From contig CAXXUA010000010.1 of assembly GCA_963663765.2 (NCBI GenBank), forward strand, positions 1 to 25,277: a stretch of 25,277 nucleotides of DNA, read 5' to 3'. Of the stretch, positions 1-25,277 are shown piece after piece (positions within the stretch are counted from its first letter, which is position 1; each line of letters starts with the position of its first letter). A program made the translations under genes and the position numbers. Under the pieces are notes generated by a model. That model did not search any database and was not told the origin of the DNA. It worked only from the letters and a program-made list of their open reading frames with translations. The stretch is from Candidatus Poribacteria bacterium. GTDB taxonomy: Bacteria > Poribacteria > WGA-4E > WGA-3G.

Positions 1-326
1 TTGAGTTTGGGTGAGTGCGTGGCGCGCTTATAAAGCACGCCTGCAGTGGGGGTATGCCAGCAGGTGAGGGTGGGGATGGCGCGCTTACAAAGCACCAAAT
101 CAAGAAATCAACGGTATGAATGCCATTTAGGCATTCCCCGGGTATGAATGCCATTTAGGCATTCCCCGCCTGCAAGGGAGTGCACGGGGTGCGCTTCCAA
201 AGCACCAAATCAAGTAATCAAGAAATCAACGGTATAAATGCCTTTTGGTATTCCCCCAAATCAACGCCGAATGCGCGTATGGCATTCGTCGGGTATGAAT
301 GCCATTTAGGCATTCACCGCCTACCG
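1..326. repeat. Cluster of REP family A (GCGCGCTTACAAAGCACGCCTGCAG/CTAC); two copies are interrupted by CAAATCAA micro-elements
   Basis: Three copies of the hairpin GCG(C/T)GCTT-ACA-AAGCACGC. Inserts at 96-167 and 206-318 split AAAGCAC|GCCT. Confidence 0.85.
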
Positions 327-7440: not shown

Positions 7441-7650
7441 CTTTAGTCCCGCCAAATGCCATACGCGCATTTGGCGTTGATTTGGTAGGGACGATATGTT
7501 TATAGAAAAACGTCATAGTACATCCTCTTTAGTCCCGCCAAATGCCATACGCGCATTTGGCGTTGATTTGGTAGGGACGATATGTGTGCATTATAAACCT
7601 AATATATGTAATAACTTTGAAAACAATTGGTTAACTGGCACAAGTCGTTA
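7441..7650. repeat. Two REP C units, each split by a 34-bp micro-element (7451-7484, 7537-7570), then an 80-bp segment inverted relative to 11892-11971
   Basis: GTCCC|insert|GTAGGGAC, compared with uninterrupted GTCCCGTAGGGAC elsewhere. Confidence 0.85.
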
Positions 7651-12105: not shown

Positions 12106-13309
12106 TAGGTGTCAACTTAAGGATTCTGATCTCTTGTGGGAGGGGTTTTCAACCCCGATTTTATGTTCATTTCCACTCAAATCGGGGTTACAAACCCCTC
12201 CCACAAGAGAATATGCCAACAATATTTTCTTAAGTTGACACCTATCAAATGGGGGTTACAAACCCCTCCCACAAGAGAATATGCCAACAATATTTTCTTA
12301 AGTTGACACCTATCAAATGGGGGTTACAAACCCCTCCCACAAGAGAAAATGACAACAATATTTTCTTAAGTTGAGACCTATCAAATGGGGGTTACAAACC
12401 CCTCCCACAAGAGAATATGCCAACACATTTTTCTTAAGTTGACACCTATCAAATGGGGGTTACAAACCCCTCCCACAAGAGAATATGCCAACACATTTTT
12501 CTTAAGTTGACACCTATCAAATGGGGGTTACAAACCCCTCCCACAAGAGAATATGCCAACACATTTTTCTTAAGTTGACACCTATCAAATCGGTGTTACA
12601 AACCCCTCCCACAAGAGAAGTTGACACCTATCAAATCGGGGTTACAAACCCCTCCCACAAGAGAATATGCCAACAATATTTTCTTAAGTTGACACCTATC
12701 AAATGGGGGTTACAAACCCCTCCCACAAGAGAATATGCCAACAATATTTTCTTAAGTTTACACCTATCAAATCGGGGTTACAAACCCCTCCCACAAGAGA
12801 ATATACCAACAATATTTTCTTAAGTTTACACCTATCAAATCGGGGTTACAAACCCCTCCTACAAGAGAATATGCCAACTCAAATCGGGGTTACAAACCCC
12901 TCCTACAAGAGAATATGCCAACTCAAATCGGGGTTACAAACCCCTCCCACAAGAGAATATGCCAACAATATTTTCTTAAGTTGACACCTATCGGGGTTAC
13001 AAACCCCTCCTACAAGAGAATATGCCAACTCAAATCGGGGTTACAAACCCCTCCCACAAGAGAATATGCCAACTCAAATCGGGGTTACAAACCCCTCCTA
13101 CAAGAGAAGTTGACACCTATCAAATCGGGGTTACAAACCCCTCCTACAAGAGAAGTTGACACCTATCAAATCGGGGTTACAAACCCCTCCCACAAGAGAA
13201 TATGCCAACTCAAATCGGGGTTACAAACCCCTCCTACAAGAGAATATGCCAACTCAAATCGGGGTTACAAACCCCTCCTACAAGAGAATATGCCAACAAT
13301 ATTTTCTTA
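12106..13309. repeat. One full MITE/REPIN-like element (12106-12244) extended into a tandem array of about 20 REP B copies built from 68-, 46- and 44-bp units
   Basis: Core CAAAT(C/G)GGGGTTACAAACCCCTCC(C/T)ACAAGAGA, with optional ATATGCCAAC, AATATTTTCTT and AAGTTGACACCTAT modules. Confidence 0.92.
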
Positions 13310-15538: not shown

Positions 15539-15548
15539 GATTTATTTT

Positions 15549-16470
15549 GGGTGTGTAAAGTTTTTGCACAGAGGTACTAACTTTTGTTCTCTTTAGTCCC
15601 GTAGGGACGCAATGTTTATAGAAAGACGTTATCACCCTCTCTTGAGTTCCATAGGAACGACATAGAAGAATAAACATATCGTCCCTACCAAATCAACGCC
15701 AAATGCGCCAAATCAACGGTATGAATGCCATTTAGGCATTCCCCGTATGGCATTTGTCGGGACTAAAGAGTATGTGCTATGGCGTATTTCTATAAACATA
15801 TCGTCCCTACCAAATCAACGCCAAATGCGCCAAATCAACGGTATGAATGCCATATGGAGATTAATAAATAAATTAGGTGATTCTATCTAACCCACCCTGG
15901 TAGGCATGTTGGCACATCAAGTCCCAATAGCGCGCTTACAAAGCACGCCTACCATCGGGGGCGCGCTTACAAAGCACCAAATCAACGGTATGGGTGTGTA
16001 AAGTTTTTGCACAGAGGTACTAACTTTTGTTCTCTTTAGTCCCGTAGGGACGCAATGTTTATAGATAGGTGTAATCACCCTCTCTTGAGTTCCGTAGGAA
16101 CGACATAGAAGAATAAACATATCGTCCCTACGGGACTAAAGAACTGGGAAGGGCACTTGTTTTCTATAAACATATCGTCCCTACGGGACTAAAGAACTGG
16201 GAAGGGCACTTGTTTTCTATAAACATATCGTCCCTACGGGACTAAAGAACTGGGAAGGGCACTTGTTTTCTATAAACATATCGTCCCTACGGGACTAAAG
16301 AACTGGGAAGGGCACTTGTTTTCTATAAACATATCGTCCCTACGGGACTAAAGAGGATGTACTATGGCGTTTTTCTATAAACATATCGTCCCTACGGGAC
16401 TAAAGAGGATGTACTATGGCGTTTTTCTATAAACATATCGTCCCTACGGGACTGAAGAGGATGTACTATG
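15549..16470. repeat. Repeat mosaic: ~140-bp direct repeat (15549-15688 and 15992-16131), nested micro-elements, a REP A pair and a REP C array of about 7 units of 52-53 bp
   Basis: GGGTGTGTAAAGTTTTTG starts (also at 9002); AAACATATCGTCCCTACGGGACTAAAGA units with two linker types. Confidence 0.88.
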
Positions 16471-22184: not shown

Positions 22185-22248
22185 GCGGGTGTGTCCGCAC
22201 TCACCCGCAGTCGTGTCGGCCCTAAACTGCAGGCGTGCTTTGTCCGCT

Positions 22249-22895
22249 CTTTAGTCCCGTAGGGACGATATGTTTATAGAAAACCAGTGCCTCCAAGGTC
22301 TTTAGTCCCGTAGGGACGATATGTTTATAGATAAAGCATTTCCTCCAAGGTCTTTAGTCCCGTAGGGACGATATGTTTATAGAAAACCAGTGCCTCCAAG
22401 GTCTTTAGTCCCGTAGGGACGCTATGTTTATAGAAAAGCATTTCCTCCAAGGTCTTTAGTCCCGTAGGGACGATATGTTTATAGATAAAGCATTTCCTCC
22501 AAGGTCTTTAGTCCCGTAGGGACGATATGTTTATAGATAAAGCATTTCCTCCAAGGTCTTTAGTCCCGTAGGGACGCTATGTTTATAGAAAAGCATTTCC
22601 TCCAAGGTCTTTAGTCCCGTAGGGACGCTATGTTTATAGAAAACCATTTCCTCCAAGGTCTTTAGTCCCGTAGGGACGCTATGTTTATAGATAAAGCATT
22701 TCCTCCAAGGTCTTTAGTCCCGTAGGGACGATATGTTTATAGAATAGGAACAGCATATAAGAATAAACATATCGTCCCTACGGGACTAAAGAGGGTGGGT
22801 GGGGTTCTTGTTTTCTATAAACATAGCGTCCCTACGGGACTAAAGAGGTTTTTTCACCGATTTCTATAAACATATCGTCCCTACGGGACTAAAGA
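22249..22895. repeat. REP family C array: 10 tandem 51-52 bp units followed by 3 inverted units
   Basis: TCTTTAGTCCCGTAGGGACG(A/C)TATGTTTATAGA plus a near-constant linker ending CCTCCAAGG. Confidence 0.92.
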
Positions 22896-24492: not shown

Positions 24493-24515
24493 TAGGCGTG
24501 TGTTTCTTCGGAACG

Positions 24516-24964
24516 GTAGGCGGGGAATGCCATACGCGCATTCATACCGTTGATTTGGTGCTTTGTAAGCGCGCTGCACACTCAACTGCGGGGCGCGCTT
24601 ACAAAGCACGCCTGCAGTTGAGTGTGCGGCGTGGTTTGTAAGCGCGCCCCCCTACGTTCCCCTGACTGCAGGCGTGGTTTGTAAGCGCGCCCCCCTACGT
24701 TCCCCTGACTGCAGGCGTGCTTTGTAAGCGCGCTCCCTACGTTCCCCCTGACTGCAGGCGTGCTTTGTAAGCGCGCTCCCTACGTTCCCCTGACTGCAGG
24801 CGTGCTTTGTAAGCGCGCTCCCTACGTTCCCCTGACTGCAGGCGTGCTTTGTAAGCGCGCCTCGCCCTCAACTGCAGGCGTGCTTTGTAAGCCGCGCCCT
24901 CGCCCTCAACTGCAGGCGTGCTTTGTAAGCGCGCTCCGTGACTGTGCGTGCTTTGTAAGCACGT
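24516..24964. repeat. REP family A cluster directly upstream of the RAYT gene, with ~42-bp tandem units; the first unit carries a 36-bp micro-element (24522-24557)
   Basis: CTGCAGGCGTGCTTTGTAAGCGCGCTCCCTACGTTCCCCTGA repeated. Confidence 0.9.
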
Positions 24965-24996: not shown

Positions 24997-25277
24997 ATGG
25001 ATACTGTAAAAACATATCGTAGTCAAGAATTACGCAAAGGTAGACACTCTATCCAAGGGGCATACTATCATGTCACGACTGTAACGTATAAGCGTAAACC
25101 TATTCTTGCAAACGACGCAACTGCGTCCATCATTATAGGTGCCTTTAATTGGTTGAAAAAGAAGACCGTATTAGATGGATTTGTATTATGATAATGCCAG
25201 ATCACCTGCATACAGTTTTTCAGCTTGGTGAGACACATGACCTATCCAATGTAATACACTCTCTAAAAAGGTATACA
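24997..25277 (+). CDS. REP-associated tyrosine transposase (RAYT / TnpA-REP, Y1 HUH family); 5' part only, frameshifted at the A5 run 25156-25160
   Basis: LRKGRHS..GAYYHVTTVTYKRKPIL. After the frame change: EDRIRWICIMIMPDHLHTVFQL..LSNVIHSLKRYT (MPDHLH is the HUH motif). REPs are adjacent. Confidence 0.88.

Follow-up and report, generated by a model that had tools for sequence, protein, structure and literature searches.

Nested hairpin modules of 34 and 36 nucleotides, resembling small dispersed repeats, in a genome of Candidatus Poribacteria

Introduction

The small dispersed repeats (SDRs) of Nostoc are reportedly non-coding, hairpin-forming sequences of 21-27 nt, present in hundreds of copies, nested in each other and in miniature inverted-repeat transposable elements (MITEs), and found beside short tandem repeats with a heptamer unit. 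They are also said to be precisely present or absent without any target duplication, and the enzyme that mobilises them is reportedly not known. To our knowledge, units of this kind, of 20-40 bases, have been described mainly from Nostoc so far, and how they move has been unsolved since 2008. Here we analyse two short modules, A (36 nt) and B (34 nt), that are stacked one inside the other in the hairpin of a repetitive extragenic palindromic (REP) sequence, REP C, in a genome of Candidatus Poribacteria; the stack lies on contig CAXXUA010000010.1, whose 25,277 nucleotides are the window referred to throughout this work. The SDRs, numbered SDR1-8 in Nostoc punctiforme and its relatives and SDR4-6 in particular resembling the present case, are said to have been described by Elhai, Kato, Cousins, Lindblad and Costa in 2008 (Genome Res 18:1484). 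That paper is cited in PMC5861425, PMC3116915 and PMC2884548, and, according to PMC5861425, SDRs have not been reported from HIP1-rich cyanobacteria other than Nostocaceae.

Other known systems also share features with such modules. Elements of the IS200/IS605 family carry two different subterminal hairpins, recognise their target through guide/target pairing, insert at a short specific site without target duplication and with strand polarity, and excise precisely; the work on IS608 and ISDra2 is reportedly that of Ton-Hoang, Chandler, Dyda and colleagues. The systems formed by REP or REPIN sequences and the REP-associated tyrosine transposases (RAYTs) have been treated by Bertels and Rainey (2011; PMC3116915) and by Di Nocera et al. 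(2013; PMC3733652), and the latter authors indicate that REPs are regularly embedded in other palindromes and include Nezha as an example of a cyanobacterial MITE. In the available sections of these two papers, micro-inserts in the stems or loops of REPs are not described. We found no literature connecting Poribacteria with REP, MITE, RAYT or SDR repeats, and, among the Poribacteria papers that mention the term 'palindromic', those listed deal, to judge from their titles and the openings of their abstracts, with sponge microbiomes, symbiont genomics and, in one case, CRISPR and defence, none of them with dispersed repeats.

Results

Module A lies in the loop of module B, and B in the loop of REP C

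The window is the entire contig 10 of a 6.35-Mb assembly in 15 contigs, and consists largely of repeats (Table 1). A preliminary description of this DNA, made from the letters alone, had placed at 15689..15758 a three-level nest in which a 36-bp variant (15709-15744) sits at a C^G step of a 34-bp variant, in the same orientation, within REP C. Both the string and the coordinates match exactly, and the arrangement of the two variants is borne out, with the cut ambiguous by one base. The inserted material between the two halves of the REP C stem amounts to 70 bp, corresponding to B split by A. The insertion point of B is CTAC^GGGAC of the REP C hairpin, and that of A is GCGC^GTATGG, in the loop of the hairpin of B. 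The two modules begin with a common 10-nt head, CAAATCAACG, each followed by one 7-bp hairpin; in A, the head is succeeded by GTAT, the hairpin GAATGCC/GGCATTC with loop ATTTA, and a CCC tail. Allowing up to one mismatch, the head is found 12 times in the window versus 2.5 expected, a number that none of 100 shuffles reached. When folded as DNA, positions 15678-15766 give concentric hairpins with -14.9 kcal/mol (z -2.5; 5 out of 200 shuffles fold equally well), while module A by itself folds into its 7-bp hairpin with -6.9 kcal/mol (z -3.75).

Table 1. Features of the window, with positions counted from its first letter.
Feature	Position	Strand	Basis and remarks
Left terminal repeat of MITE-G, GGGTGTGTAAAGTTTTTGCAC	15549..15569	+	Exact copies at 15549 and 15992; an inverted copy closes the contig-2 paralogue
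REP C hairpin, empty and inverted (GTCCC GTA GGGAC)	15596..15608	-	Inverted repeats; upstream of the composite
Left arm of host REP C, ATAAACATATCGTCCCTAC	15670..15688	+	Stem GTCCC at 15681-15685, loop TAC at 15686-15688
B-left, 20 nt	15689..15708	+	Head CAAATCAACG, then 5' stem and half loop CCAAATGCGC of the 34-nt module B
Module A, 36 nt, in the loop of B	15709..15744	+	Read from the sequence; copies genome-wide
B-right, 14 nt, GTATGGCATTTGTC	15745..15758	+	Remaining loop and 3' stem of B
Right arm of host REP C, GGGACTAAAGAG	15759..15770	+	Stem GGGAC at 15759-15763
Second composite: REP C-left, B-left and A-left	15792..15854	+	122 bp downstream; 71-nt direct repeat, 94%
Left part of MITE-T (TGGAGATTAATAAAT..., TGGAGATTAAT...) in the loop of the second A	15855..15977	+	REP D copies at 15930-15953 and 15961-15977
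Start of a further A (CAAATCAACGGTAT) within the last REP D of MITE-T	15978..15991	+	Ended by the next MITE-G copy, from 15992
A-type compound: head and two tandem 28-nt hairpin units	104..168	+	Period 28, 2.0 copies, 100% matches
B'-type 34-nt module, stem CGAATGC/GCATTCG, at CCCC^GGGTATG	257..290	+	Flanked by A-type hairpin units at 222-256 and 291-318
B without A in a REP C loop, inside another MITE family	7451..7484	-	Internal 'empty B' control; row with B-B state
Second B without A, in the adjacent REP C unit	7537..7570	-	Sequence match
Tandem array of 6.6 empty REP C units, period 53	16113..16458	+	Tandem-repeat scan
REP D array (GTAG followed by GCGTGC TTTGTAA GCGCGC)	24510..24960	-	Period 43, 7.5 copies; A variant in the first unit, 24516-24551
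RAYT gene	24997..25277	+	Y1_Tnp match; NF047646 positions 1-45 and 41-82

A and B behave as discrete modules across the genome

Genome-wide comparison of the sequences gives good support to the view that A and B act as separate, precisely bounded insert modules, since all occupancy states are found, pairs of paralogues differ by exactly 36 or 34 bp, no target is duplicated, and orientation and site are fixed. The genome contains 892 left arms of REP C, followed in 805 cases by a recognisable right arm within 200 nt. Among these 805 loci, which include all the states (empty, B, B + A), the loop is empty in 663, holds B in 65 and B plus an A-type insert in 55, and has some other content, mostly a MITE, in the remaining 22. 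The parse of all nested cases that had been proposed in the preliminary description gave a uniform result: the 55 inner inserts are all located between positions 20 and 21 of B and all share its orientation; over all its hosts, the target of A is mostly GCRC^G. The inner inserts are not all of one form, comprising 36-mers with the loop ATTAA (26) or ATTTA (10, the type present in the window), 11 longer compounds (43-72 nt) in which the head, the hairpin unit or both are present twice, and single variants, one of which has a further hairpin module inside A. The head can also grow as an 8-nt tandem unit. In the whole genome there are 533 A blocks with 658 hairpin units, 487 of the blocks having a head, and 152 B-left halves; the 33-nt B/A junction is present in 51 copies on 11 contigs, and the full REP C[B[A]] composite about 50 times. 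The 14-mer GTATGGCATTTGTC ends 39 of the 55 occupied and 41 of the 65 unoccupied copies of B. A G/T difference in B-right was considered as a lineage marker and rejected, TTTGTC being the majority form both with and without A.

The hairpins of A and B are kept, with compensated substitutions. All seven pairs form in 463 out of 570 A units, and the stem cells changed on both sides, which count copies and not independent events, are Watson-Crick pairs in 52 cases and unpaired in 4, with 139 one-sided changes. A further hairpin module (CATGGCGAATGCC...GCGCATTCGCC or CATGGAGCATGCC...) was observed in the stem-loop of A in at least 43 of 79 'split' A units, for example at plus-strand offset 11157 of contig 2, and one copy of this A-invading module holds itself nested within.

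The sites occupied by A are diverse in sequence and alike in structure. The 487 blocks with head occupy 172 distinct contexts of 7+7 nt, nearly all of them other small palindromes, and a C^G step is found at the insertion in 349 of the copies and 86 of the contexts, the CpG background being 3.9%; 284 blocks have GCRC as their left flank. The commonest host is REP D, whose sense strand reads GTAG GCGTGC TTTGTAA GCGCGC and in which A enters either of two symmetrical positions of the stem, with the same architectures, simple and compound, as in the B site. The insertion point is uncertain by one base, as filled/empty pairs allow a cut at C^G or one position further left. Taken together, A and B show one orientation and one position per host, with no target-site duplication and a preference for short steps in or beside hairpins.

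Two pairs of paralogues provide filled and empty versions of the same site. On contig 3 (minus-strand offsets 579680 and 580775), tandem 1.1-kb duplicates that are about 98% identical have as their sole internal indel a 36-nt A, with no conversion tract visible around it; each duplicate spans a gene end, a MITE and the start of the next gene. The other pair, two dispersed copies on contigs 4 and 5, is distinguished by exactly one 34-nt B, present in a single REP C, and by an additional unit with B+A. Beyond the one-base ambiguity, no target is duplicated in either pair. Both belong to a MITE family (59 left anchors, 49 copies with both anchors) in which almost all combinations of empty, B and B+A states are seen among the internal REP C units, and they are the two supported sister pairs in the flank tree of that family. 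The 15 and 21 state changes counted on this tree lack a shuffle comparison and are not used as evidence. In addition, a joint from 15707 to 15744 that skips the 36 nt of A is found in two public sequencing runs, with a shorter side of 23-26 nt; it is indistinguishable from B-only copies elsewhere, and speaks neither for nor against excision.

The preliminary description had also seen reciprocal nesting in a 34-bp variant lying at 257-290 inside a 36-bp-type compound. A 34-nt B-type unit is indeed present there between A-type units (Table 1), and nesting in this genome is both hierarchical and reciprocal; what has to be amended is the identity of the partner, which has the stem of a sister subfamily, B'. 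REP C accounts for 65 of the 77 uninterrupted B-type units and, in a version with an additional C that was classed as 'other', for one more; the remaining 11 are placed between A hairpin units, ten of them belonging to B', in which the stem has a compensated change from an A-T to a G-C pair and the loop differs by one base.

The nest in the window was copied as a unit

The modules at this locus were not assembled there one after the other. The nest in the window was not built locally, having been inherited ready-made within a larger repeat, MITE-G, a 'MITE-like' repeat that acts as its carrier, and orthology with congeners ends at position 15548, just before it. The presence of the composite at about 50 sites, of a doublet of composites 120-122 bp apart at 5 loci of this genome, and of the B/A junction in 15 out of 37 congeneric genomes implies that the window copy was copied as a unit. 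A paralogue on contig 2 is 94% identical over 15549-15853, a stretch that covers both composites, and has the same start of the MITE-G repeat, GGGTGTGTAAAGTTTTTGCAC; three further doublets are located in a different MITE-like repeat of about 400 bp. The insert junctions are the same at base level in the contig-2 paralogue and in the congeners. For these reasons, the independent and sequential mobility previously proposed for the two variants holds for A and B as separate modules, in view of the exact 36-bp and 34-bp pairs, and does not extend to the window locus as a record of three local insertions.

The surroundings of the composite add further levels. The second composite ends inside the loop of its A, at 15854, where MITE-T begins. 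The MITE-T family is also found in A loops at about 10 other places and, at its full length of about 155 bp, in REP C loops; it landed in the loop of the neighbouring composite after the nest was in place. As a result of the elements listed in Table 1, nesting at 15792-15991 is five levels deep.

In the genus (37 genomes), A is present in 37, uninterrupted B in 34 and the B/A junction in 15 (this genome and 14 others), and none of the three was found in 24 genomes of three other families. A sample of 151 genomes across the phylum, including this one, yielded A in 89, namely 38/38 of this genus, 50/57 of the sister genus and 1/51 elsewhere, the latter with a single copy; A was absent from the five genomes examined from three other genera of the family. 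Copies of A per congener range from 2 to 468, this genome having the highest number. In a collection of species-representative genomes, the exact 41-nt B/A junction was found at 31 loci, all 31 in Poribacteria records, and viral contigs gave no match to A.

Among 37 junction loci in other genomes compared by BLAST with this one, only one clear orthologous pair could be recognised from the flanks. In that case, from another species, the composite lies in a third MITE that is missing from the orthologous site here, so that the two differ by the whole MITE and not by a micro-element. Two MITE families, with ends GGGTGTGTAAAG... and TGAAGATTAAT..., carry or interrupt composites. The REP C[B[A]] composite is therefore older than the window copy, having formed before the species of the genus diverged or moved by transfer among them, and it was then multiplied together with the REP C tandem units and the MITE-like repeats, at least three in number, that carry it.

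REP D, RAYT genes and strand polarity

REP D, the main host of A, has the features of GTAG-tagged REPs: an unpaired GTAG at one end, a short palindrome with a 6-bp stem, and a high copy number, which amounts to 1352 in this genome (up to 2 mismatches) and to 0-117 in the 36 other genomes of the genus searched. It also flanks a RAYT, with the array at 24510-24960 directly upstream of the NF047646-matching gene that ends the window. This array has at least eight GTAG-type units, the outermost of which holds an A variant with the loop GCGTATG. The gene itself is in two reading frames (frameshift near 25150-25190) and truncated by the contig end, and its two parts are 43% and 52% identical to a full-length RAYT on contig 4. 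The genome has six Y1_Tnp matches, including these two RAYT genes, both flanked by REP arrays. The contig-4 gene (C4:620161-623487; NF047646, 122.5 bits) is intact and has long arrays of a different REP (…GGAGATCGCTCCTACA…) on both sides, and that REP hosts A inserts in 15 copies.

Adjacent clusters tend to have the same orientation, both for A (181 out of 282) and for REP D (159 out of 252), and neither value was attained in any of 2000 permutations. On contigs 3, 4, 5 and 6, the orientation of these clusters was observed to remain constant over hundreds of kb, with flips at around 1.0 Mb of contig 4 and 0.2 Mb of contigs 6 and 3. It does not track the orientation of long open reading frames. 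GC skew is too weak to place replication polarity, and the three apparent switch points fall on three contigs.

Other repeats were noted in the window. Long tandem arrays of another hairpin repeat (GGGGTTACAAACCCCTCCCACAAGAG...), with periods of 68 and 44, occupy 12177-13297, beside the end of the nusA gene, and more REP C-like arrays are present at 880-1286 and 22248-22744, where a GTTCCTACGGAAC variant has period 49 and REP C periods of 103 or 154.

Discussion

The results are best explained by considering A and B as tiny non-coding insert modules that become stacked in hairpin loops and are moved in trans, the composite in the window being inherited, a reading to which we assign a probability of around 0.7. 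According to it, A and B would be non-autonomous micro-transposons of the small dispersed repeat kind, mobilised by an enzyme that would act on single-stranded, hairpin-forming DNA and would join A at GCRC^G steps and B at YC^GGG steps of exposed REP hairpins; the same enzyme could also remove them precisely. The absence of target duplication, the six Y1 matches with two RAYTs among them, the role of REP D as both main host of A and neighbour of a RAYT, and the regional polarity led us to propose an HUH Y1 transposase of the RAYT/IS200 type as the enzyme, an idea that is tentative and on balance rather doubtful. The more specific proposal that A and B are hyperparasites of a REP-RAYT system, whose 34-36 nt with a single hairpin would be cut and pasted by a RAYT- or IS200-type HUH enzyme into single-stranded GCRC^G and CTAC^G steps of REPs, seems less likely still.

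A number of observations weigh against this interpretation, some of them concerning the enzyme. The modules have a single hairpin each, where IS200/IS605 elements have one at either end, and nothing resembling a guide complementary to the target was found within A or B. A, B and REP motifs are absent within 900 bp of the four IS200-type genes, the RAYT of the window is frameshifted, and the numbers of A and of uninterrupted REP D copies are uncoupled across congeners, with 334 A and 13 REP D in one genome (G017) and 6 A and 96 REP D in another (G030). REP C lacks polarity (orientation concordance 103/197), and there is no orientation switch at dnaA (C5:1,282,439). Regarding the sites, one host family of A has the insert at G^G, with no leading C, and the 77 uninterrupted copies of B are confined to REP C loops or A arrays. 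Other points affect the events themselves. Neither an orthologous empty site nor a local event could be seen at the window locus: homology ends at 15548 in four aligned relatives, and, although all 39 other genomes of the genus gave matches, no match among those listed goes past approximately 15566, while contigs assembled from the short reads of 4 out of 17 public sequencing runs break at 15570. The flank tree of the 49 MITE copies is star-like, with 2 of its 46 inner branches strongly supported and 34 open, so independent gains cannot be counted on it. Repeat counts may also be off, as they come from a 15-contig assembly of an uncultured organism. Finally, filled and empty REP C share arms of 20-25 bp, and gene conversion could move inserts between them without a transposase; conversion between REP C copies is a live alternative for part of the spread.

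The strongest competing explanation dispenses with dedicated mobile modules altogether: rare illegitimate events would have placed B in REP C and A in B, and the later spread would have been passive, through tandem duplication, MITE transposition and gene conversion. The copying of composite and doublet as units is clear and fits with this, as do the restriction of B to two host types, the homology offered by the REP C arms on each side, and the fact that neighbouring REP C units tend to share their state (nine arrays are BA-BA and four B-B, for instance). It meets its main difficulty in A, whose 172 distinct contexts in unrelated host palindromes, all with the same boundaries, would require many precise and oriented insertions de novo. 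Different forms of A, simple or compound with double head and two units, are moreover found at the same B site, the same architectures recur in REP D, and no conversion tract surrounds the 36-bp indel. We therefore consider passive spread an unlikely explanation of the whole.

A second alternative is that the nested hairpins are not selfish DNA and have been selected for a function upstream of rimP-nusA, such as terminating transcription, stabilising RNA or binding a protein. The composite site is indeed located about 470 bp upstream of the start of rimP, both genes being on the minus strand, stems are kept with compensated changes, and REPs of other bacteria have been credited with such roles in the relevant part of PMC3733652. 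None of the Rfam families matches the window, however, related genomes have anywhere from 0 to 468 copies, no relative has the region conserved at this locus, and copies are broken by further inserts, all of which makes a selected function quite improbable.

The remaining two possibilities retain hardly any probability. The pattern could in principle derive from local tandem duplication or slippage of the head CAAATCAACG, which appears twice, 20 nt apart (15689 and 15709), and expands elsewhere as an 8-nt tandem unit; this scenario, already named in the preliminary description as the one that would undo its interpretation, is refuted, because a complete A, identical to those found in unrelated hosts, makes up the stretch between and beyond the heads, B is found uninterrupted 77 times, this genome has 51 copies of the same junction, which 14 congeners also possess, and hundreds of copies elsewhere and two exact paralogue pairs exclude a purely local origin. 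Collapsed or chimeric repeats in a metagenome-assembled genome, which the repetitive nature of a window that is a whole 25-kb contig and the short-read contig breaks at 15570 could suggest, are equally hard to reconcile with an exact 41-nt junction at 31 loci, all of Poribacteria and including single-chromosome assemblies, and with 51 copies of the junction on 11 contigs of this assembly.

If A and B were hyperparasites of the kind outlined above, no smaller DNA would be known to be mobilised by an enzyme of this type, and the strict order in which they nest would allow the invasions that followed one another in an uncultured sponge symbiont to be read off. The window itself calls for caution in this respect, since larger repeats carry whole nests along when they are copied, so that nesting at a single locus does not necessarily reflect events that took place there. 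The genome offers every intermediate (empty, B, B+A and up to five levels), clean 34- and 36-bp pairs, short target steps and an association with REP and RAYT, and these features together provide concrete substrates for a biochemical test of how such units move.

Comparison with known systems

By the defining features examined, A and B fall outside REPs, MITEs and IS200 derivatives alike. The host REP D, with its unpaired GTAG, 6-bp stem, 1352 copies and array beside a RAYT, conforms to the REP/RAYT type; A and B, in contrast, have neither a GTAG nor a CGTC tag on either strand, do not form doublets, and sit inside REPs. Like MITEs, they are non-autonomous, multi-copy and able to nest, but they are 3-10 times smaller, do not duplicate their target and lack terminal inverted repeats, their ends being CAAATC... 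and ...CCCC or ...TGTC. With IS200/IS605 elements they share the lack of target duplication, a short specific sequence at the insertion, hairpin dependence, strand polarity and precise excision; the difference lies in the one hairpin per module and in the four IS200-type genes of this genome, which have no A or B at their flanks, as would be found if the modules were miniature versions of these elements.

The closest known kind would be the SDRs of Nostoc, a likeness that we draw from the features reportedly described for them. A and B are also small, non-coding, hairpin-forming and dispersed in high copy number (487 A blocks, 152 B-left halves). They nest in a comparable manner, with A lying in B (55 cases), B' in A arrays (11), further modules in A, composites in MITEs and the head as a tandem octamer, and among paralogues they show the same precise presence or absence without target duplication. 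There are differences as well: at 36 and 34 nt (a 28-nt hairpin unit and a head of 8-10 nt) both modules fall outside the 21-27 nt of SDRs, the tandem unit is an octamer in Poribacteria versus a heptamer, and A and B prefer REP hairpins, including the REP of a RAYT gene, as landing sites. They also belong to another phylum, and no relation in sequence to SDRs was found, although none of the SDR sequences entered the comparison. With these provisos, the genome analysed here would represent, after Nostoc, a second and unrelated lineage with hundreds of copies of such units, and what is new is the presence of micro-repeats similar to Nostoc SDRs in another phylum, with a possible link to a REP-RAYT system.

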